Source of the DNA: a virus | Taxonomy: Duplodnaviria; Heunggongvirae; Uroviricota; Caudoviricetes | Reading direction: 5' to 3' (one strand) | IMG/VR virus record: IMGVR_UViG_2565956617_000006 | Coordinates: 1-12,894 of that record | DNA length: 12,894 bases | Shown: piece by piece, positions 1 to 11,801 of the stretch | How the letters are laid out: each line of letters begins with the position of its first letter | How positions within the stretch are numbered: the first letter of the stretch is position 1 | Translations under genes and position numbers: made by a program | The notes under the pieces: model-generated | Told to the model about the DNA's origin: nothing | Database searches by the model: none | The model's input: only the letters and a program-made list of their open reading frames with translations

Positions 1-477
1 ATGAAACTCATCAGTAACGATCTGCGCGATGGCGATAAATTGCCGCATCGTCATGTCTTTAACGGCATGGGTTACGATGGCGATAATATTTCACCGCATC
101 TGGCGTGGGATGATGTTCCTGCGGGAACGAAAAGTTTTGTTGTCACCTGCTACGACCCGGATGCGCCAACCGGCTCCGGCTGGTGGCACTGGGTAGTTGT
201 TAACTTACCCGCTGATACCCGCGTATTACCGCAAGGGTTTGGCTCTGGTCTGGTAGCAATGCCAGACGGCGTTTTGCAGACGCGTACCGACTTTGGTAAA
301 ACCGGGTACGATGGCGCAGCACCGCCGAAAGGCGAAACTCATCGCTACATTTTTACCGTTCACGCGCTGGATATAGAACGTATTGATGTCGATGAAGGTG
401 CCAGCGGCGCGATGGTCGGGTTTAACGTTCATTTCCACTCTCTGGCAAGCGCCTCGATTACTGCGATGTTTAGTTAA
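1..477 (+). CDS. ybhB: YbhB, PEBP/UPF0098-family (Raf-kinase-inhibitor-like) cytoplasmic protein; host chromosomal gene on the bio side of lambda attB
   Basis: 158-aa ORF starting exactly at window position 1 (MKLISNDLRDGDKLPHRHVFNG...), with the PEBP-type D-P-D-x-P...H signature (CYDPDAPTGSGWWHW); recognised from memory as E. coli YbhB. It lies directly beside a sequence matching the lambda attB B-prime arm, as expected for ybhB. Coordinates include the TAA stop. Confidence 0.85.
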   Translation: MKLISNDLRDGDKLPHRHVFNGMGYDGDNISPHLAWDDVPAGTKSFVVTCYDPDAPTGSGWWHWVVVNLPADTRVLPQGFGSGLVAMPDGVLQTRTDFGKTGYDGAAPPKGETHRYIFTVHALDIERIDVDEGASGAMVGFNVHFHSLASASITAMFS

Positions 478-770: not shown

Positions 771-1084
771 GTCAACACACTGGGTTAGCTGAATTTACAA
801 CCACGCTCAGTATCTCGATAAGCGCAGAGAAATGATGCAGTGGTGGGCGGACTGGATTGATGAAAAGGTGGAGTGATCCGCCTTAACCATTATCGAAGAG
901 CACAAAGCCTTGCAATCCAGTGCAATGCTTTGTGTATACCTATTTTCCCAAATTTGTTTCAGTAATATGTCGATCTCCAATTATTAGAATGGTACACTAA
1001 ACAACGTGCGCAATTACAATAATGTAGCGTATAAAAAAACAAAAGCTAATTATATTTTTTAAATAAACATAGTGAACTAAATAT

Positions 1085-2071
1085 ATGAGAAATTATAGCA
1101 TAGATACTATGAGGTTTGTAGCGTGCTTTTTTATAATAGCTGTTCATATAGGTGGGTACCCGCAACAAGGAGAATTATTTACAGAGGTATTTAGAGGTGT
1201 ATCGCGATGGGCTGTGCCATTCTTCTTCCTGGTTACAGGATATTTTTTATCATGCCAAAACAAAAGAAAACTACTATTAAGACTTACTAGGATAACATAT
1301 ATAACACTAATATTTAGCGTACTGTTCTTTATTTTTCAACTAACTTTGAACTATAAAGATGGATATTCATTAATTATAAGCATCATAGATCCATTTATTT
1401 TTATCGGTGGGTCTTATTTCCATTTGTGGTTCTTGCCTTCAATCTTAATAGGTATGATTTCAGTAAGTTACATGATAGAAAATGTTTCAGAAAATTTTGG
1501 AATCTCTTTAAGTATACTTATTATATTTATAATGTGGTGCGTTGATTTCTTTGGTACTGCCTACTTCTCACATGATATATATGAATCAACAAGAACTATT
1601 CTATCAATACCAACAATATATATAGGGTATTACTTATACACTAAGAAAGACATAATTATAAAATCTAACGGGAATTTATTGATTTTATGTATGCTAGCTT
1701 CCGTGGTTTTTTCCGTGATTGAGATTCTAATATACAAATCAATATATGGTTCACTTGCCAATATAAGAGAACTACCTTTATTTTCTGTTATTACTGCTAT
1801 AATAATACTAATGTTATCTATAAGATCACAAAGCACAAAAGAGACTGTTCTATCAAGGATAGGAAGAGATGATTCTATCGTCATATATCTTATTCACCCA
1901 CTATTTATAGTTTTAATATCAAAGGTGTTTAGGGTTGCTCATGAATATAACGGGATGGCTATTCTTGTGATTACATTTATTGTAAGCATTTCGTTTTCAT
2001 TGTTTGTCAAGAGTAAATTTCCTTCAATATATTCATTTCTTACTGGCGGTTTTATAAAAGAAACAAAATAA
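1085..2071 (+). CDS. Acyltransferase-3 family integral membrane protein; putative O-antigen O-acetyltransferase (Oac-like lysogenic-conversion moron)
   Basis: 328-aa ORF, very hydrophobic with roughly 10 predicted membrane spans and the N-terminal acyltransferase-3 R-x10-H motif (RFVACFFIIAVH). Coding sequence is strikingly AT-rich compared with the adjacent structural genes. It sits between attR and the tailspike, as oac does in Shigella phage Sf6. ATG at 1085 has only a weak SD; an internal ATG at 1109 is an alternative start. Confidence 0.8.
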   Translation: MRNYSIDTMRFVACFFIIAVHIGGYPQQGELFTEVFRGVSRWAVPFFFLVTGYFLSCQNKRKLLLRLTRITYITLIFSVLFFIFQLTLNYKDGYSLIISIIDPFIFIGGSYFHLWFLPSILIGMISVSYMIENVSENFGISLSILIIFIMWCVDFFGTAYFSHDIYESTRTILSIPTIYIGYYLYTKKDIIIKSNGNLLILCMLASVVFSVIEILIYKSIYGSLANIRELPLFSVITAIIILMLSIRSQSTKETVLSRIGRDDSIVIYLIHPLFIVLISKVFRVAHEYNGMAILVITFIVSISFSLFVKSKFPSIYSFLTGGFIKETK

Positions 2072-2081
2072 ACCATAAAAC

Positions 2082-2106
2082 ACACCACCATAATATATGG
2101 TGGTGT
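2082..2106. terminator. Bidirectional hairpin between the convergent acyltransferase and tailspike genes
   Basis: Perfect 10-bp inverted repeat ACACCACCAT / ATGGTGGTGT with a 5-nt loop, lying between the acyltransferase stop (2069-2071) and the tailspike stop (2129-2131). A/T-rich runs flank it on both sides (TAAAA upstream, AAATTATTT downstream). Confidence 0.45.
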
Positions 2107-2128
2107 ATCAAATTATTTCTGAGCTGAT

Positions 2129-4027
2129 TTACATGTCATTTTCTGAATTATAAATAAGTACAACCTGACCTGAATACGTTGCTTGTGATGACCACCCTGT
2201 ATCCATATTGTATGGCCTGATCCTTACTTGGCTTGAACTAATTAATCTAGCTTTTATAAGCCATGTATCATCGTTTGTGTTTGCTGCTACCTCCTGAATT
2301 GATACTGTATTTGCTGGCTGGAATTGATCTGGTATTGCTCTTGTTACAACCCTTGACGATCCAGATACTGTTAGTGTGAAAAACTCCCTACCCGATGTTG
2401 ATATAGATTGGCAACCTTCAGAAAAGTTGTTTCTTATATCTGGTCTGGATGATCTTCCTTCTGCTATGGTCTTCATGCGAATAACGCTAAGTGGCATTAC
2501 AGTTCCCGTTGTATTACGGAATCTGCAACCTGTTATCTTAACCTGAAACGGATTTGATATAAGATTTATTGCAACTCCATGTTCAGGTACTAACCAGTTG
2601 CATGAGCTAACAGTAAATCTCGCACCGTCTGAGTTTGATTCAATTAAGCATCCATCGAAATAGCATCCAACAAAAATATCTGCGTTAGACATTATAACCA
2701 CACGCCCTTTTGCGCTATCAGCAGACTGATTTGGATAAAAATGACTATTACTAAAAGAATTTGCTCCTTTACGTAAATACATAACATCTGCATACTGTGA
2801 ACCAATAACTAAGTCTGAGAAGTTATTATCATAGTTGTTGATATCCAAGCCAACGCCATCTGTAACGTTAGTTGGGTAAGAAGCATTCCAATCTGGTTGT
2901 TGAAATATAAACGTTTTTCCCACATTTAATTCATGTGGCTGTGAGTCATTAGGTTCAGTCTTTAATCCATAACGCAAGTATCTTGTCAGTAGACCTCCCA
3001 ATATAGTCACTTTCAAAAAGTCATCATAAACCCTAATTGCGCCGGAAGCTTTCCAGTTAGCATCGATATTAGGATTAAATACCACGATGTTTTCAATTGG
3101 TCTAGAGCCGTTAACTTTACGAAAATCTAGAACAGGTTCTGTAGAAGGAAATGCTCCAATTGCTAAAAGAGATGGATTCAACATAGAAAAATTCAAACAA
3201 TCTGTTATTGTAAATGGACGTGATACATAGTAAGTGCCCTGAGTCATATCAAAAACAGTGCCACCCAAATTGTACATGTTTGGATCTTCTCTATCAGTTG
3301 AGTAAGTTGTTTTGCGATTTCTCTTGATTATACTATCTCTCCACAAATCCAGTGCATCAGAGCTGTCGAATGTTGAATCGCATGGTTTTGCTCCGTAATT
3401 TCTTGGGTCATCTACTGAATACCCAGAAAGAAATCCAACACACACCCATGTTGAGTCTGGAGTGGAGCCTGGCGTAACTATATAACCATCAATTGGTATA
3501 TTTCCTATATATGAATAATACATTCCATCTGAATATTTGAATGATTCGTATTTATTTAATATCACTCCGCCAACTGACATATCTCCAGATTTTTTGTATA
3601 CATATGGCATGTAATCGCTATAAACATTACCACCATATGTGCTCCCGACAATCTTATCTCCATTGTTTGATGAAATATCAACTCGCAACTGATCAGGATC
3701 ATACTTCAGTAAATTAGGAAAATAGAACTGCTGCACACCATATGCATCATAAACAGCCATAGAGTGGCCTTGCACAGTTACGAACTTGGCAATCTGTCCG
3801 TTATATACAGGGTAACCAGCAGCGTTAATGATGATTGGTTGCGAAACAGGAACGTGAGAGCCGTCTTCGTTCTCCACATAAACCTGAATCTGGTTTTCAG
3901 GGTTTTCCGGGTCAGTGTCAATTTTACCGATATAAATTTTGCCATTGGCTACGGCTTTAAAAGAACGAGCCATAGTGAAGAGTTGCGAAGGCATGCTTAC
4001 CACAACATTTGCGGTGATATCTGACAT
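2129..4027 (-). CDS. Tailspike protein: P22-type N-terminal head-binding domain plus divergent C-terminal receptor-binding/depolymerase region
   Basis: Translation from the ATG at 4027 gives [59 protein letters not shown]...[15 protein letters not shown]...LKYDPDQ, closely matching the P22 gp9 head-binding domain ([13 protein letters not shown]...) as recalled. SD GGAG lies 7 nt upstream of this ATG. The ORF-track start at 4075 adds 16 residues with no homology and is rejected. The remaining ~520 aa are AT-rich, rich in G/S/T/N/Y/D, and do not match the P22 gp9 body. Confidence 0.88.
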
Positions 4028-4052
4028 TTCATTGCTCCAGACGAATGATATG

Positions 4053-4075
4053 ATGCAATCATGATGTGATTGCAT
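4053..4075. promoter_or_regulatory. Candidate operator: inverted repeat ATGCAATCA-N5-TGATTGCAT in the divergent mnt/tailspike intergenic region
   Basis: Perfect 9-bp arms separated by 5 bp, 26 bp upstream of the tailspike ATG and ~75 bp upstream of the Mnt-like start. Size and symmetry fit a site for a tetrameric RHH repressor. No convincing sigma-70 -35/-10 pair could be assigned by eye. Confidence 0.4.
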
Positions 4076-4148
4076 ACCGAAATGGTACTATTGAGTATTT
4101 ATCCAGTAGGTTACGATGCCATTCCACCCAACTGGTGAGGCATCAAGG

Positions 4149-4409
4149 ATGTACAGCAAATACGACGAGGCGCAGTTTCACTTGAGACTTCCGCATGAAC
4201 TCCACGCGAAAATTAAACAGCGCGCGAAGATGAATAACAGGTCGCTGAACTCAGAGATAATTGCAGCGATTGAAGAATCATTGGCTAAACAAAGCTCTGC
4301 ATCAGTTTACATTGACGATGCAGAGCGTATGGCAGAACAACAATCTGATATGGTTAAGAAAATTGTCTTTGATACGCTCAAGGAGCTATATAAAAAAGAC
4401 AGCAACTAA
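4149..4409 (+). CDS. mnt: Mnt-like ribbon-helix-helix (Arc/MetJ superfamily) repressor
   Basis: Clear similarity to P22 Mnt as recalled: QFHLRLPHELHAKIKQRAKMNNRSLNSEIIAAIEESL versus HFNFRMPMEVREKLKFRAEANGRSMNSELLQIVQDAL, and DDAERMAEQQSDMVKKIVFDTLKELYKK versus NDAERLADEQSELVKKMVFDTLKDLYKK. Start chosen at ATG 4149 (86 aa, GAGG SD 8 nt upstream); the ORF track's ATG at 4116 (97 aa) is an alternative. Orientation is opposite to the late genes, as for P22 mnt. Confidence 0.8.
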   Translation: MYSKYDEAQFHLRLPHELHAKIKQRAKMNNRSLNSEIIAAIEESLAKQSSASVYIDDAERMAEQQSDMVKKIVFDTLKELYKKDSN

Positions 4410-4429
4410 CCATCCATTACGGAGGATTT

Positions 4430-4507
4430 ATGCAAAGAGATATGATGAATATTACATTCTACATATTTGGTTTTTGCACTTTCCTGGTGTTTGCAAAGCT
4501 ATTCTGA
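4430..4507 (+). CDS. Hypothetical 25-aa hydrophobic micro-protein (MQRDMMNITFYIFGFCTFLVFAKLF)
   Basis: ORF found by eye, below the ORF-track size cutoff. GGAGG (4421-4425) lies 4 nt upstream of the ATG. It starts 20 nt after the mnt stop and overlaps the 3-prime end of the convergent gp16-like gene by 9 nt. The residue run ITFYIFGFCTFLVF could form a single membrane span. It may be spurious. Confidence 0.25.
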   Translation: MQRDMMNITFYIFGFCTFLVFAKLF

Positions 4508-6496
4508 CAACGCATCAGACTTAGCCCCCTGCGTCATAGCGTTAATTGCCTTTTGTGCCTGCTGCATGGCTTTCTCAAACGCTGTTGATCCGCGTGGGGT
4601 GTTTGCCATTCGGAGCATTGCATTTCTGAATGGCTCGCTCTCATAGGCGCGAGTGAGAAGTCCGTAGCTTACTGCTGCGCCAGTTGTCGCCGGGTTCATT
4701 GCCGTCCCATACCCAATAATGAACGGGATAGTTTGCTGCCCTGTGGGTGTTGTTACTGCCGCTTTTGCAGCCTGCTGCGTGGATTGCAGGTAGTTTTTCA
4801 ATCCTTTCAGATAAGCGGCTTCCTGACCTTTAAATGTGATGCCAGTCTGGTTTTGCAGGATGTTAAGCTGCCGAAGGAACTGGTCAGGGGAACCACCTGA
4901 TTTCTCCATCGCCTTTCCAATGATGCCATTGCGCATTTGCGCCCTGCCAACACGACCAACTGAGTTATACAGAGTCTTAATTTCCGATTTGTTCTTGCTG
5001 AATAGCATGTTGTTGACAACTTCCGGCGTAAGATCGCCTTTCATGAGAACATTCTTCAGCCTGGTATTCTTTAGTTTCGCCGCTTCGTCAGCGTAAACGG
5101 CATTGGCCTGCTGATATTTACGGAGAGTATCGCTGCCAAGATTCTGACCAATGGCACCATTGATATCGTCGGTCATTGCCTTGTAAACTCGCTGAATGGC
5201 AGCATCGGAACGGTTTGGTAATACCGGTCGCTCACCCTTCACGTCCATTCTGAACTGGCTGCGCAGGTCGCTTAATTGCTTCAAATCCAGATTTACCGGA
5301 CCATCAGGGCCAGCATTGCGAACAAGCTCATCACGATATGACTGAAGTTTTGAAATTGTCTCGTTATCAGCTACCTTACCAAGCTTCTGCAGATTAGATA
5401 TCTCAGTATCAATCTGCTGAATTGCTCGCGCAGGCTGAATGTTTACTCCAGCCATAGCATTCTGAACCTGCTCCAGTCGATTACCGGCGGCACGACGAAT
5501 TCCTGATGTTTTCGTTTTAAGGCTGCCAATAACAACCGCTGGATCATACTCGCCGAATTTATCAGCAAATCTCTGCACCAACTGACTTCTCGCTTCCTGT
5601 TGCGTTGCTCTCATTCCGCTTGTGCCAGCCAGGGGAATATTTTCTGCTGTAGTCTGCGCCATTTTCCCGACGCGGGAAGTAGGCTGTAACAGGTCTGTGG
5701 TGTGCAGAGGCACTCCTTCACGCTCTGCAAATCTGATAGCTTGCTGCGCTTCTGGTGCAATAGCACCACGAACGCCACGATAAGCAGCGCCTAATCCACG
5801 TCCGGCAGCGTTAATAGCGCCGCCAGCCAGAACGCCAACGCCTAAATCGGTGGCGAGTGCTTCCGCATCATCTTTCGCACTATTTGCAGCAAGTGATCCA
5901 ACTGCGTTTTCAGCGAGAAGGCGAGTTGCCCCCTGAGCAATTCGACCAGCAAGTGTTGGTGCCTGTGCTGCCGCTCTCTCAACGCCAGCAGGAGTGAGGT
6001 AAGGCAATGCTTCAGCAAATACCCTTCCCTCTGTCGTTTGTGGAGTCAGCGCGCCTTGCTGAAAGCCAAAGTCCTGCTCTAATCCCTGCGTTGTTACTCG
6101 TGGCGCTGGTTGATATGTACCATCGCCAATACCGAGTTTACCGCCAGCCCAAGCCGCCGCGCTTGTTACAGCATCGGCAACTGATGCAGGTATGTTTGCC
6201 ACGTTCACGCCAGCCTGCACCAGTCCGCGACCTGTCTCTTTTACTGCTTCACCAAGATCAGACATAAATCCACTTTGCTGTGGTTGTTGCTGTGCTACTG
6301 GTTGTTGTGTCTCCACTGGCTGCACAGATGGCAATGGATAGGCAGCATAGAAAGCTTGCTTAGCCTGCTCTGCATTTTCTCCGGCTTGCGGGGCCACGAC
6401 TTCATTGAAGTATTGCTCCTGAGCCTGCGCTTTTTGTTCTGGTGCTAACGCCTGATACTGTGGAGAGGCGATAACATCTTTCCATGCTTTAGCCAT
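4499..6496 (-). CDS. Ejection (internal virion, E) protein, P22 gp16-like
   Basis: 665-aa Ala/Gln/Gly-rich ORF, last gene of the ejection-protein trio before the tailspike/immI region, as in P22 gene order 7-20-16. Its ATG overlaps the upstream gene's stop (TAATG). Assignment is by synteny and composition. Confidence 0.65.
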   Translation of the reverse strand: MAKAWKDVIASPQYQALAPEQKAQAQEQYFNEVVAPQAGENAEQAKQAFYAAYPLPSVQPVETQQPVAQQQPQQSGFMSDLGEAVKETGRGLVQAGVNVANIPASVADAVTSAAAWAGGKLGIGDGTYQPAPRVTTQGLEQDFGFQQGALTPQTTEGRVFAEALPYLTPAGVERAAAQAPTLAGRIAQGATRLLAENAVGSLAANSAKDDAEALATDLGVGVLAGGAINAAGRGLGAAYRGVRGAIAPEAQQAIRFAEREGVPLHTTDLLQPTSRVGKMAQTTAENIPLAGTSGMRATQQEARSQLVQRFADKFGEYDPAVVIGSLKTKTSGIRRAAGNRLEQVQNAMAGVNIQPARAIQQIDTEISNLQKLGKVADNETISKLQSYRDELVRNAGPDGPVNLDLKQLSDLRSQFRMDVKGERPVLPNRSDAAIQRVYKAMTDDINGAIGQNLGSDTLRKYQQANAVYADEAAKLKNTRLKNVLMKGDLTPEVVNNMLFSKNKSEIKTLYNSVGRVGRAQMRNGIIGKAMEKSGGSPDQFLRQLNILQNQTGITFKGQEAAYLKGLKNYLQSTQQAAKAAVTTPTGQQTIPFIIGYGTAMNPATTGAAVSYGLLTRAYESEPFRNAMLRMANTPRGSTAFEKAMQQAQKAINAMTQGAKSDALSE

Positions 6497-7884
6497 TAAT
6501 CACCCCATAGTGAAGAAAAGTTACTGCTGGCTGCTGGCTGTGATACCTGTGCAGGTTGAGATTGCTTCCGCTGAGATTTACCAACATTAACGTTATATTG
6601 TTGGTTGTAATTGTTGGTGTATTCCTGAATTTCACGAATCGACTGCTGCATAGCCTCCGGGCTTGAATAGTCAACCTGCGGCATCCCCTGAAAATACATC
6701 TTCGCTTCTGCAACGGTGTTAATACCACTGGCACCCATGTCCCTTGCTGCCGCCACGCCCTGATTCTGCATTCTTCCCTGAATACGTTGTGCTGAGTTAT
6801 ATAACTGGCGCTGCTCTTTTCCTGTTAATCGGCTGCGAACATCAGCACCAATTGCCGGGTTACCTGCACCGCCGGTCATTCCTGTCATGAAATCGAGAGC
6901 AGAAGCGTCTGCATTTGCGATCGCGTCGATATCCTTCTTCATGGCATAGTTTTGTGCTGATGCAGACGATGTTGCAGGCGCTGCGATTGAACTGGCAGGA
7001 ACGCGAACCATATTCCCCTCGTTGTCGATGCCTTCGTAGAACGCATTAGCCCCAGCGCCGTGAAGCTTCCCGCCTACCGTTACAGTTCTGCCATCTGATA
7101 ACTGAACTGTACGCTCGTCATTCCCAGCGGTTCCTCTTGTTGACGCTCGCTGCATTGCCAAATCCTGCCCGCGTCGCGCAGTAGAAGCAGATAAATCCTG
7201 ACCGCGCATCGTGATGTTTTGACCTCGTGCTGTTAGCGCCTCTCCGGCCTGATTGCTGCGGATTGTCTCTGCCAGTCTGCCTCTGTCAATCTCACGACCA
7301 GCCATCTTGTCCTGAACATTGAAGTAATCAATCGGACCAAGAGCAGCCATTCCGAGGTGATCAACAAACTCGCCAAATCCTGAAGGATTCTGCTGATACA
7401 TCTGAGCAACGTTGTTAGGGTCAACGCCGACGCGCGCCAGTTCCTTGGCGTTGTTTTGCAGCCATGATTGCATTGCTTCTGGAGACGATGACGCAAGGCG
7501 TGCGCCAGCCGCTAAGGTGCCGATAGAATTACGCTGGTCTTCATCAATGAATCCCATGCCTTTACGAACGGATTCAATCTGGTCTGGATATTGAGTAGCC
7601 AACTGACGCAAAGCACCGCGATCACCAGACGCATAAGCATTAGCGTACGCCTGCTGAAATTCTTTCTGCCGCTGAGCCTGCTTTTCCTGCTGAAGCACCC
7701 CTGCAATACCTGAAAGGCCTTGCAAAGCAGTCAGCCCAACATTGTTAGCGCCTGAACGCTCAATATCATTGTTCTGCCTGATAAGCTGAAGCGTATTGCC
7801 GATGTCATTTACGCTCGGAGCGTTTGAGTTGACGCCGCCGATACCAGCCAACAATCCGCCGTTTGTTCCTTGCCAAGTAGCCAT
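6496..7884 (-). CDS. Ejection (internal virion, E) protein, P22 gp20-like
   Basis: 462-aa ORF between the gp7-like and gp16-like genes (P22 gp20 is of similar size), coupled to the downstream gene by a TAATG overlap. Assignment is by synteny. Confidence 0.65.
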
Positions 7885-7893
7885 GATTACCCC

Positions 7894-8586
7894 TTAAAAC
7901 AACGAGCCAAGCAGGCCAAGTCCGCCGCCAATTGCCGCACCTAATCCAGTGCCAAGTCCTGGAACAATAGAGCCAAGAGCAGCGCCAGTCATAGCCCCTG
8001 AAGCTCCGCCGCTAATTGCTGTCTGAAGACCTGATGGTTTATTGGCATTAGCAGCGGCAAGAGCCGCACTTTGCTGCGAAATCTGACTCATGTTGTTGGC
8101 ATATGTCTGCCCGGCGTTTGCCTGACCTTGCAGTGCGCCAAGACCAATATTTGCCAGATTCTGGTAGTTGTTCATCTGACCAGACAGCCACTGCTGACCA
8201 AGCGTTGGTGCGATTGTTGCTAACTGATTACCGGTTGCAGTGGAACCCAATCCACCTGTTGCTTCCGCTGCCGCCAGACTCTGATAGCGAGCCTGACCAG
8301 CAAGATCTTTGTACTGCTGAGAGTTGTAATACTGGTTAAGTGCCTGACCTTGCCCCTGAAGAGAGGAAAGATTCTGCAATTGTGATACGTACTGCTGAGC
8401 GAGTGGCGTGAACGGAGCAAGGTTTTTCATGATCGTCTGCCACTGCTGATTCTGCAGGTCTGCGGCATACTTCTGAGCTTCTGCTGCATACTTTGCGCTT
8501 TTATCGGACCCACCTTTCCCGCCTTTTTCAGGGCAATAAGGTTCCTCTCCGCGCAGTTTTCTGCCCAGCTTAAATGCATATAACAT
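7894..8586 (-). CDS. Ejection (internal virion, E) protein, P22 gp7-like
   Basis: 230-aa ORF beginning MLYAFKLGRKLRGEEP..., Gln/Ala-rich centre and a Gly-rich hydrophobic C-terminus (GLGTGLGAAIGGGLGLLGSLF). Size and position match P22 gp7. A GGGAG SD precedes the ATG. Confidence 0.7.
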   Translation of the reverse strand: MLYAFKLGRKLRGEEPYCPEKGGKGGSDKSAKYAAEAQKYAADLQNQQWQTIMKNLAPFTPLAQQYVSQLQNLSSLQGQGQALNQYYNSQQYKDLAGQARYQSLAAAEATGGLGSTATGNQLATIAPTLGQQWLSGQMNNYQNLANIGLGALQGQANAGQTYANNMSQISQQSAALAAANANKPSGLQTAISGGASGAMTGAALGSIVPGLGTGLGAAIGGGLGLLGSLF

Positions 8587-8588
8587 GG

Positions 8589-9044
8589 CTATCTCCCGTG
8601 ATTCAGGAAGTCGATTAGTTCTTCGCGTGTAGCACTGTAAAATGTCACGTCATCCACGCCTTTGAAGTATTTCTTGATGGTTCCGACACGCTTAAGGCCA
8701 ATCATTGCGCAGTACATCTGCCCGTGGCGGAATTTGCGCGCAGCGAACGATGTGACGCACTGAACGGTGGTGTTAGTCAGAATGTATCGCCAGAACGCCA
8801 GCCCAATTTCCTTGCTGAAGCCGCGAATCTCTGGCAGGTACATGGCGTGGCAATCGAATGTCAGCGGCTGAATCTCCTGATAGTAAACAATGCCGCCGAA
8901 CTGACCGTACACGTTCACCTCAAAGTAACGGCATTCAGGCTTGTAGTCGTATCCATCACCATTGTTGCTTCCGGCAATAATGTCAGGGTGATTTCCGACT
9001 GCTTCGATCAGGTCGATATTTCGCGTTGGTTTGAACTGAATCAT
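8589..9044 (-). CDS. P22 gp14-like protein (position-based assignment)
   Basis: 151-aa ORF between the tail needle and the gp7-like gene, the slot of P22 gene 14. Start taken at the ATG at 9044, which overlaps the needle TGA stop (TGATG); the ORF track begins one codon earlier at a GTG (9047). Confidence 0.5.
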   Translation of the reverse strand: MIQFKPTRNIDLIEAVGNHPDIIAGSNNGDGYDYKPECRYFEVNVYGQFGGIVYYQEIQPLTFDCHAMYLPEIRGFSKEIGLAFWRYILTNTTVQCVTSFAARKFRHGQMYCAMIGLKRVGTIKKYFKGVDDVTFYSATREELIDFLNHGR

Positions 9045-9892
9045 CACTGCTCCGCAATGATTTTGATGGTTGTGGCATTAAACGCCGCACCATTCGACTG
9101 AATGGTTAACGTACTGCCATTTGTGGCAAGAAATCCGTCTTTATCCACGCTGAAGAATGTAGCTAACAGGATGTTGTCGGTTGTTGTCGCCGCATTACGA
9201 CTGCTGACCAGCGTATCAGGAACAGAGCCGGAAAAGGTTAGCTGCATTGACCTGTTGGCGGTTCCGCTGGGCCACGTCCCGACAATCGACATCTTGAAGA
9301 ACAGGGTTTTGTTCTCGTTGAACACAACCATCTTGTTGTTAACGGTGTCGAAGAATGGTGCCAACGAGCCGGATGACGGCGTGAGCGTTTTCAGCAGGCT
9401 AACAAGGTTGGTCGGCGCTGTCGGGATGGTTACAGATACGCCAGAGTAAACAACCTCTGACTTTTTGCGAGTAGTGGCATACTCCAGAGCATCAATGCGC
9501 GTTTCATGGTCTGAAAGCGTGTTTTGAATGGCGATAACTTCATCAGTCAGATAATCAATATCGTTTTCTGCTGTCGTTAATCGGGAATCAAGGCCGACTA
9601 TCGCCGATTCTGCGTTAGTGATCCTTGTTTCGTGGTCCTGAATCTTCGCTTCAGCTGATGCCAGTCGAATTTCGTGATCGACCAGAATCACATCCTGCTC
9701 ATCGTTCCTGACCTGTGCATCATAAGCGCCCTGTCCGGCCTCGTTGGCCTTGTTAGCCACGTTACCAACATCAGTGCCCTGTGCGATAACGTAAAGCAGA
9801 TACGACTGCGAGAAGATATTGCGTGGAAGGACTGATGTGTCGAGCCGTGTGGCCTGAATGATTACCGGCACATTGAGATTCGAATCAGCCAT
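9044..9892 (-). CDS. Tail needle (P22 gp26-like) with an extra C-terminal knob domain
   Basis: N-terminus [68 protein letters not shown] matches P22 gp26 as recalled. It is followed by heptad-like repeats ([30 protein letters not shown]...[10 protein letters not shown]) and then ~110 aa of beta-rich sequence that P22 gp26 lacks, as in Sf6-type knobbed needles. Confidence 0.8.
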
Positions 9893-11310
9893 TACTCAAT
9901 CCTTATCTGGCAGCCTGACAGAGTGACAGGTGACTTCGTGATAACGCGCAATTTGAAACCGACATTTTTCCTGATGCGCCCTACTCGCTTCCACAAAACG
10001 CGTTTGTCGTAAACGAACGGTTCATTCTGCTCAATCATCTGCTCACGCCCGTAATTGATGCCGTCAGTGGTTGCAGAGAGGAACAGGCGGTCAGCGTACT
10101 GCGCAACGCCAGTTGAAGATTCAACCTCAAGGTCGAACACCCGGGCGTTATCCGCTTTGAACAACGGAGTAAACAGCAGGTGTTCCTGCTGCTTGTCGTA
10201 CTGGCTGCTGATATCGAACTGCAATTTCCCGGTCACGGATTCCAGCTTATCGCCGCACGTTATCTGATTGCCTTCGTAAATGAAGTCGATAGCGCGGTAC
10301 ACATCGTCATACAAGCCAGTTTTCAACACACACCATTGCGGACCATTGGCGCTTGAAGATGCGTCGTACACGAGAACATGGCGCGGAAGGTGGATAATCA
10401 GCAACTCATGAGCATCAAATCGCAGAGACTCCATCACACCCTCAGCCAGTTCATCAGCAGTGTAGGAGCGGAGAATTTTCTCAATGCTCGCGCTGGCGAT
10501 TGGTGATACCTGACCGGAGCCGATGATGTATACAGACGGCGCACCTGTTGCCGGATTGCTGATGAACGCATAGGAATCAGCGAATGGAGTTTTACAGTAG
10601 GTTCCGGCAATACCTTTCTGCACCATCAGCGATGGCTGTGCAACATACAAAGCGGCACCAACGGTGGTTGCGCCAGTAAGGGAGAAATATTCAATAGTCG
10701 ATGAACCAAAGCAGACGATGAAGTCTCGCCATGTGCCGATGCCGATGATGCCGTCAGGCTGCGATTCTGCGCGATATTGTGCGCTGTATCGGTCAGGATG
10801 TGATTCGTCTTCAAGGTCAGTGATAAACCATGAATCAGTGCCGTCTTTTGACCACGCATAACGCCCACGTAAGCGCGTAATGTCGCGAACTGAACCTAAC
10901 TCGTACTGTGTGAATCCGCTGTCTGTAGGCCAGTTTGAGACGGTTTTAACCGTGCCATCATAGCGATACTCGACCAGTTGACCATTAACGCCTATTGCCT
11001 GTGATGTCCTACCGTGTGCCATTGATACGCGACCACTTCCGGCGACGTCACCGACTTCGCTTTCGCCTTTGTAGAGCTTGCCACCACACACGCGATAAAC
11101 AGCATTCCGCGCCATGTTGTACTCGACGCCGCGCGATACGCCGTTTACATCAGAGCGTTTGGCAATGCCCGGGAATGAGCGAAGATATCCGCTGCTGTTC
11201 AGGATTTCTTTGGGTGTAGCCAACATATTCACTGGCAGATAGTCGATATAGTCGGCGTTTCGAAAGTCTTTGCCGACACCTTTCATAAGCGGAAGTTGCT
11301 GAATAGGCAT
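9892..11310 (-). CDS. Head-completion / tail-accessory protein, P22 gp10-like
   Basis: 472-aa ORF, the same length as P22 gp10 as recalled, in the gp4-gp10-gp26 order. AGGTGA SD upstream; TAATG coupling to the needle gene. Confidence 0.75.
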
Positions 11311-11318
11311 TTATTCAC

Positions 11319-11801
11319 CTATGCGTTTGGGATATCGCCATCAATCAGAGGGAGATCGCGTGGATAATATCGGTCAGATGTGAACACGTCATATTTATTA
11401 CCCTGTCCTACAGGAAAATCTCCACGTCGTCGTATTGAAGGAACAACCAGAGTGTCGGTCATCAAGGCATCATATGAGCGTTGGGCGTTACTGAGAACTT
11501 GCGGAGTTGGTTCAAGGCTGTAATCAGATAGCATTCTCAGCAATAACTGATAGCCTACTGCGTGTTTGTATTTTCTTGGAAGACCTGACTCATCATCTGG
11601 TAATGGCTGCTCATCTCCAGTTGCGAAAGCGTAACCAATGTCGCCGGGGTTAATCATCCACTCGGACATCATATCTTCCAGATCAATTACACCATCTTCA
11701 ATTGATTGCGGCTCAACATCAGTCAGCGATGCATTAGAAGCAATAGCAAACTTACGAAGCGCAAAAAGGACGATCTCACCCTTTGTCAGTACTGTTGCCA
11801 T
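11319..11801 (-). CDS. Head-completion / tail-accessory protein, P22 gp4-like
   Basis: 160-aa ORF; its N-terminal region ([35 protein letters not shown]) resembles P22 gp4 ([35 protein letters not shown]) as recalled. Lies immediately upstream of the gp10-like gene. Confidence 0.75.
   Translation of the reverse strand: [160 protein letters not shown]

Follow-up and report, generated by a model that had tools for sequence, protein, structure and literature searches.

A mosaic P22/Sf6-type tailspike in a prophage remnant of Escherichia coli and its genomic association with the OX18 O-antigen cluster

Gene content of the prophage end

The analyzed stretch of DNA (the window; 12,894 nt, IMG/VR record IMGVR_UViG_2565956617_000006) is the right end of a P22-like prophage, encoded on the minus strand and adjoining the chromosomal gene ybhB (window 1-477; Table 1). 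The tailspike gene closes the P22-type virion operon, following gp4-gp10-gp26-gp14-gp7-gp20-gp16 and immI, and a complete prophage elsewhere shows the same order of virion operon, immI, tailspike, conversion gene, and attachment site. An Arc/Mnt-type repressor gene, divergent from the tailspike gene, is the sole leftover of the immI region. Among the virion genes, gp16 (665 aa) has no Pfam match; it belongs to the PHROG 'DNA transfer protein' family and contains a transglycosylase-like stretch. Phage-specific matches start at about window 791-819. A short pseudogene fragment annotated with a 'missing N-terminus' lies at the phage-chromosome junction and recurs beside the variant prophage of strain fECg99.1 (see below); it is probably an attR-side duplicate of the integration target.

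Table 1. Positions of the features discussed in the text (window coordinates unless a host locus, L009 to L015, is named).
Feature	Position	Strand	Evidence or remark
Pseudogene fragment at phage-chromosome junction	793-876	plus	84 nt
Mobile cassette mnt/arc - tailspike - acyltransferase	819..4382		blastn vs complete ~39-kb prophage, 99.5% identity
Acyltransferase (Acyl_transf_3), 328 aa	1085..2071	plus, convergent	PF01757, E 9.4e-28; PHROG O-acetyltransferase family
Terminator-like 14-bp hairpin and T-rich tail	2079..2109	minus	20 nt past tailspike stop
Tailspike ORF, mechanical extent	2129-4075	minus	intact, 648 codons
Tailspike CDS	2129-4027	minus	1899 nt, 632 aa; same CDS in RefSeq/PGAP annotation
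C-terminal beta-sandwich, ~residues 538-632	2132..2416	minus	strands 540-626 in models
Right-handed parallel beta-helix body, ~residues 238-537	2417..3316	minus
Neck module, residues 140-237	3317..3610	minus	short beta strands 145-198; helices 208-211, 223-237
Linker, residues 114-139	3611..3688	minus	low-confidence model, pLDDT 24-28 (full-length model)
Hinge and recombination joint	3682..3709	minus	LKYDPDQ, residues 107-113, coded by 3709-3689
Head-binding (particle-attachment) domain, residues 1-113	3689..4027	minus	Pfam Head_binding PF09008
Translation start	ATG 4027-4025 (element 4025..4038)	minus	GGAG 4038-4035, 7-nt spacer
Arc/Mnt-type ribbon-helix-helix repressor	4116..4409	plus	Pfam Arc, Repressor_Mnt; PGAP start 4149
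P22-type tail and ejection genes	4499..11801	minus	Pfam, PHROG (gp16), annotation
gp16	4499-6496	minus
gp20	6496-7884	minus
gp7	7894-8586	minus
gp14 (DUF2824)	8589-9047	minus
Needle gp26, Sf6-type	9044-9892	minus
gp10	9892-11310	minus
gp4	11319-11801	minus
ISEc52/integrase remnant end	L009 30004-32976; L010 same; L011 34345-36298; L014 14044-16411; L015 14892-17418

The mechanical reading frame of the tailspike opens at ATG 4075, which has no Shine-Dalgarno sequence comparable to that of ATG 4027. According to the original prediction, this frame over-extends the N-terminus by 16 codons and translation starts at the Shine-Dalgarno-backed ATG 4027. This correction is right, since a GGAG motif precedes that codon with a 7-nt spacer, RefSeq/PGAP gives the same start, and the product, which opens with MSDITANVV, is collinear in its N-terminus with the tailspikes of Sf6 and P22. 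At the other end of the gene, a strong hairpin sits between the convergent tailspike and acyltransferase genes and is likely a terminator. The acyltransferase gene has the lowest GC content in the window (29.8%), occupies the classical lysogenic-conversion site, and gave no tblastn match (E<1e-5) among 50,697 phage records. Among the carriers described below, its protein occurs in the variants WP_023156182, WP_097428239, and WP_077630256 plus WP_416042075.

Domain architecture of the tailspike

The head-binding domain matches PF09008 over the whole profile (E 5.4e-66), and a PDB sequence search matched solved structures to residues 1-119 only, namely Sf6 gp14 (1.7e-63) and also P22 gp9. The domain had initially been described as near-identical to that of P22. 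While its identification as a head-binding domain stands, the near-identity does not: 84/113 residues (74%) are shared with P22 gp9 as compared to 102/113 (90%) with Sf6 gp14, and the head is of the E. coli/Shigella Sf6/HK620/CUS-3 type, with 86-90% identity. This conserved domain fits the co-resident tail genes gp4, gp10, and gp26, and it would dock to or work with the products of the tail and ejection genes from gp16 to gp4.

The similarity to other prophage tailspikes ends abruptly at the LKYDPDQ hinge. A megablast search with the gene matched 1,126 of 5,426 complete E. coli genomes, but only 7 over the full length, and these were all 100% identical. The partial matches listed, which have 94-97% nucleotide identity, all break off within query nt 386-394, corresponding to window 3690-3682 or codons 113-116. 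Hence, about 1,120 E. coli genomes have the head in common with this tailspike, not the body, and the head is shared with more than 1,100 prophage tailspike genes at 90-97% identity.

For the part beyond the linker, a confident monomer model (pLDDT 88.3, pTM 0.84) covers residues 140-632; it supersedes a full-length AlphaFold model on a mixed-anchor alignment that was of low quality (pLDDT 68, no modelled head) and gave Foldseek matches with low TM scores. Structure prediction and fold search, which had been proposed as a check on the original prediction, revealed a right-handed parallel beta-helix in the C-terminal receptor-binding body, as in P22-like tailspikes, with a depolymerase-like fold; the best viral structural match is the tail fibre of Aeromonas phage 2_D05 (TM 0.70). 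In the model, the two helices of the neck module cap the beta-helix. The C-terminal beta-sandwich is strongly conserved within the family (NDDTW, RPYNM) and may act as a trimerisation or stability module. Eight polar residues, H365, E366, Q376, D400, N401, H429, D458, and R470, are invariant across 21 homologues down to 23-33% identity, with E366, D400, and D458 lying on successive beta-helix rungs, which makes these three the best candidates for catalytic carboxylates. Taken together, the protein is almost certainly a mosaic P22-type tailspike with a beta-helix body, and by analogy to its family this body is presumably a polysaccharide-binding and depolymerase domain.

Relatives of the receptor-binding part and further joints

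The original prediction had furthermore stated that the protein loses its resemblance to the P22 endorhamnosidase after the head, in agreement with a phmmer match to P22 chains that covers residues 1-118 only. Residues 114-632 match no Pfam family, the body has no PDB sequence match beyond residue ~119, and tblastn matches to P22-like phages stop at residues 118-138, so that the body does not belong with that of P22 gp9 (GH90). In the phage collection, tblastn detected no record covering >=80% of the protein; the best match is the gp17-position protein of Kayfunavirus P762, with 70.2% identity over residues 139-631 (78% of the protein). By the threshold for subtypes of receptor-binding proteins (RBPs), >=30% identity over >=60% coverage of the RBD (Pas et al. 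2023, PMC10408124), this similarity places the tailspike in subtype X13, to which P762_RBP belongs and which is listed without an assigned or validated serogroup (Pas et al. 2023, PMC10408124). The claim of a different and unknown receptor specificity thus holds. A literature search found nothing on the biology of phage P762. Temperate prophages of the Lederbergvirus type have been described as having bodies in common with lytic Kayfunaviruses (Pas et al. 2023, PMC10408124).

Related clusters of the body are rare, with only 12 in a database of 5.8 billion proteins, and the N-termini of these relatives vary between Head_binding, a T7 tail-fibre anchor (Phage_T7_tail), PF18668, and none recognisable. 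An exhaustive HMMER search distinguished two independently distributed parts, the neck (residues ~118-235) and the body proper (residue ~250 onward). Relatives of the neck, with 35-50% identity, are found in other Head_binding tailspikes whose bodies are unrelated as well as in proteins with other N-termini, and the neck is a separately exchangeable unit; the PHROG tail-protein matches within the tailspike cover this neck stretch only. The variant tailspike of fECg99.1 (P0002-like) shows full identity from residue 71 to 224, only ~43% from residue 240 to 390, and 63-80% thereafter. Since, in addition, the anchors of other homologues join at about residue 140, the tailspike is a mosaic that comprises at least four units instead of two, and the single joint of the first reading has to be complemented by joints near residue 140 and around residues 225-240. 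The latter lies inside the receptor-binding part, at window ~3310-3355.

One body with 53.6% identity is encoded in all three of the unannotated phage records OR850875.1, OR844702.1, and OR846963.1, whose names give Salmonella Kentucky, E. coli O104:H4, and Listeria monocytogenes as hosts. These host labels look unreliable, as Listeria is an implausible host for this gene.

Prophage decay and the mobile cassette

In the strains Ec40743 and PM22, the prophage between ybhB and ybhC consists of the stretch from the acyltransferase through gp4, a cut-off capsid gene, a frameshifted ISEc52, and a cut-off integrase. JNE170426, 23-AB02114, and LR-51 carry nested versions of this remnant. Across all these strains, the deletions, which lie beyond the right end of the window, reach into the portal, capsid, gp10, or gp26 gene, depending on the strain. 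The tailspike-acyltransferase end is intact in every case. The prophage of the window is very probably such a defective remnant, in which an ISEc52-associated deletion would have removed everything from the capsid gene to the integrase, leaving the tailspike intact but stranded outside any producible virion. The gp14 homologue, intact in the window, has an internal stop in JNE170426 and 23-AB02114 (L011 26589-27044 and L015 13589-14044), which indicates further decay of the remnant.

The strains 2014C-4587 and JNE181771, in contrast to these remnants, harbor an apparently complete ~39-kb prophage at sbcB/dacD, that is, at a different chromosomal site from the window prophage. The stretch from mnt/arc to the acyltransferase is 99.5% identical between the two prophages, while gp16 and part of gp20 (window 4383-7246) give no DNA alignment; mnt/arc, tailspike, and acyltransferase would therefore travel as a cassette. 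The prophage of fECg99.1 has a full mnt-arc-ant region and is without the acyltransferase.

Association with the OX18 O-antigen cluster

To relate the tailspike to the host surface, the galF-gnd interval of 2014C-4587 served as query for the O-antigen cluster. This cluster occurs in only 12/5,426 genomes (0.22%), and yet the 12 include 5 of the 7 hosts with the exact tailspike gene as well as fECg99.1, the host of the 88%-identical variant. Fisher p values for this link are 4e-13 (exact hosts) and 7e-16 (exact hosts plus variant), to be read with the fact that the association comprises only about three independent contexts among closely sampled lineages of STEC and B1. Two of the exact-gene hosts have been published as STEC OX18:H2 and OX18:H19 (PMC8084502; PMC10793325), and the OX18 O-antigen gene cluster has been described as unique (PMC4732683). 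It encodes only glycosyltransferases, wzx/wzy-like proteins, and hypothetical proteins. Neither the structure of the OX18 O-antigen nor an OX18 tailspike was found in a literature search.

A strict 1:1 OX18 specificity of all carriers was rejected, as Ec40743 has an O28ab-type cluster and PM22 a third one. Compared with the OX18 strain JNE170426, the chromosomal flanks of these two remnants have 0-2 mismatches, in 18 kb of sequence on one side and in 12 kb on the opposite side (about 1% for the flanks of fECg99.1), implying that the remnant was inherited vertically and the O-antigen replaced afterwards. This points to a remnant lineage that replaced its O-antigen cluster at least twice. Since the remnant is immobile and can no longer infect, Ec40743 and PM22 are uninformative on specificity, and we explain both exceptions by prophage decay and O-antigen switching, not by broad specificity. 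The presence of three different O-antigen clusters on near-identical bio-ybh flanks (L005 17948-23729 in Ec40743, L006 29431-40055 in PM22, and L003 20026-26209 of the OX18 type) likewise indicates recent O-antigen switching in one lineage. In PM22 (L006 40425-44233), yegH follows almost directly after galF, and the colanic acid (wca) cluster, which precedes galF in other strains, seems to be missing.

On these grounds, the OX18 O-antigen is, by a modest margin of confidence, our favored candidate for the tailspike substrate. Alternatively, the receptor may be a different surface glycan, such as a capsule, a modified core, or an epitope shared between strains, or it may be a different O-type, with the OX18 enrichment reflecting clonal co-inheritance of prophage and serogroup in a few lineages that are related. 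Such a scenario would be compatible with the 2/7 exact hosts that have non-OX18 clusters and with the relatedness of the carriers, as the five ybhB-site carriers represent one lineage and the two sbcB/dacD carriers one prophage, which leaves only about three independent events. It has also been reported that RBP subtypes occur across several serogroups and probably have other targets (Pas et al. 2023, PMC10408124). We nevertheless consider it unlikely: the non-OX18 carriers hold the deletion remnant, the cassette is present in OX18 hosts on two backbones and integration sites, a diverged variant is also found in an OX18 host, the OX18 cluster is rare among the genomes, and the neighboring gene is of an O-antigen-modifying type. 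In OX18 hosts, the cassette appears in three contexts, namely the complete sbcB/dacD prophage, the ybhB/ybhC remnants, and the variant prophage of fECg99.1.

Proposed function of tailspike and acyltransferase

Overall, the gene probably encodes an OX18-specific mosaic tailspike that is stranded in a remnant. [quoted passage not shown] More tentatively, body and acyltransferase could constitute a mobile 'recognise and then modify' OX18 cassette, in which the two beta-helix subtypes of OX18 hosts, that is, the tailspike with acyltransferase and the fECg99.1 variant without it, may distinguish acetylated and non-acetylated O-antigen; we give this idea slightly less than even credence.

The fold of the beta-helix does not discriminate between a hydrolase and a lyase. 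The body might not be an endoglycosidase at all, but a polysaccharide lyase or a binding-only adhesin module. We regard this as improbable in view of the invariant carboxylates E366, D400, and D458 on successive rungs and of the gene content of the OX18 cluster given above. The characterised P22-like tailspikes acting on O-antigens (P22, Sf6, and HK620) are, moreover, hydrolases.

Comparison with known systems and implications

The closest precedent is Sf6 gp14 (PDB 7sg7/7ukj; body 2vbk), which shares the head at 90% identity, the LKYDPDQ hinge, and the order of head, beta-helix, and C-terminal domain, and the tail needle of the window is of the Sf6 type as well (Phage_tail_NK). Sf6 also carries an O-acetyltransferase conversion gene. 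Sequence similarity to Sf6 gp14 is, however, absent after residue ~119, and the body of Sf6 acts as an endorhamnosidase on the S. flexneri Y O-antigen. With P22 gp9 (endorhamnosidase; PDB 2xc1, 1lkt), the tailspike has in common the attachment-domain family, a beta-helix body, and the gene position after the ejection-protein genes and immI, whereas the bodies are unrelated in sequence. P22 furthermore has a full immI (mnt-arc-ant) and gtrABC in place of the lone mnt/arc gene and the acyltransferase of the window element. The heads of the HK620 and CUS-3 tailspikes are 86-89% identical, and similarity ends at about residues 123-131; for CUS-3, a 'boundary sequence' is annotated at the head/body joint. 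Their bodies, an O18A1 endo-N-acetylglucosaminidase in HK620 and a K1 endosialidase in CUS-3, are both unrelated in sequence to that of the window. These two phages are textbook cases of a tailspike body swap, and since head/body swaps in P22-like phages are textbook knowledge, the architecture as such adds nothing new.

Outside this group, the Kayfunavirus P762 RBP (QUR34677.1; X13) is 70% identical in its receptor-binding part but has a T7-type gp17 N-terminal anchor and belongs to a lytic Autographiviridae phage, whose host serogroup is unreported. The putative tail fibre of Aeromonas phage 2_D05 (A0A4Y5TWX7), the nearest viral protein outside Escherichia, has ~35% identity over residues 252-625; it differs in host genus and N-terminus and is an uncharacterised protein.

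Two points only are new here: a prophage gene falls into the unassigned subtype X13, and its genomic association points to OX18. STEC of serogroup OX18 have caused fatal HUS and do not agglutinate with commercial O1-O188 antisera (PMC8084502). If the cassette is read correctly, its tailspike would be the first receptor-binding protein for an emerging STEC serogroup that is untypable by commercial antisera. If it is OX18-specific, the published but unassigned subtype X13 would gain a serogroup, and the tailspike could serve to type or capture OX18 strains or to direct engineered phages or tailocins to them, the latter with a precedent for O104:H4 (PMC3303846). The nested remnants also show how tailspike genes left stranded in a chromosome outlast a change of the host O-antigen, which is a caveat for predicting serogroups from prophage RBPs.

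Base composition across the joint

The DNA had initially been said to turn AT-rich right after LKYDPDQ. GC and GC3 amount to 43.2% and 42.6% in codons 1-115 and to 37.3% and 27.3% in codons 116-632, respectively, and a Fisher test at the pre-stated codon 115 gave p values of 0.04 (all positions) and 0.0016 (third positions); GC2 goes up in the body relative to the head. In an unsupervised search, the break was placed at codon ~100-101, with a change-point that was not significant for total GC (413/2000 codon shuffles equal or better) and only marginal for GC3 (65/2000). The direction of the claimed turn was thereby borne out and its strength was not: the compositional break is modest and by itself statistically weak. 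It is homology, not composition, that gives the sharp signal for the joint.

The domain swap postulated at this joint is supported by the divergence of more than 1,100 genes at codons 113-116, by relatives of the body on other anchors, and by the lack of relation to the P22 body, arguing for a swap at the LKYDPDQ hinge into a foreign, AT-richer receptor-binding part. In-place divergence, with the AT-richness reflecting the amino-acid make-up of a beta-helix, would agree with the non-significant total-GC change-point and the higher GC2 in the body but is already effectively refuted, as the largest shift is found at third codon positions, the homology to the many other genes ends within 9 nt, and the body sits on unrelated anchors in T7-like and other phages. 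Within the window, the tailspike gene is one step of a GC gradient that falls from 50% in the virion genes to 43% in the head, 37% in the body, and 30% in the acyltransferase.
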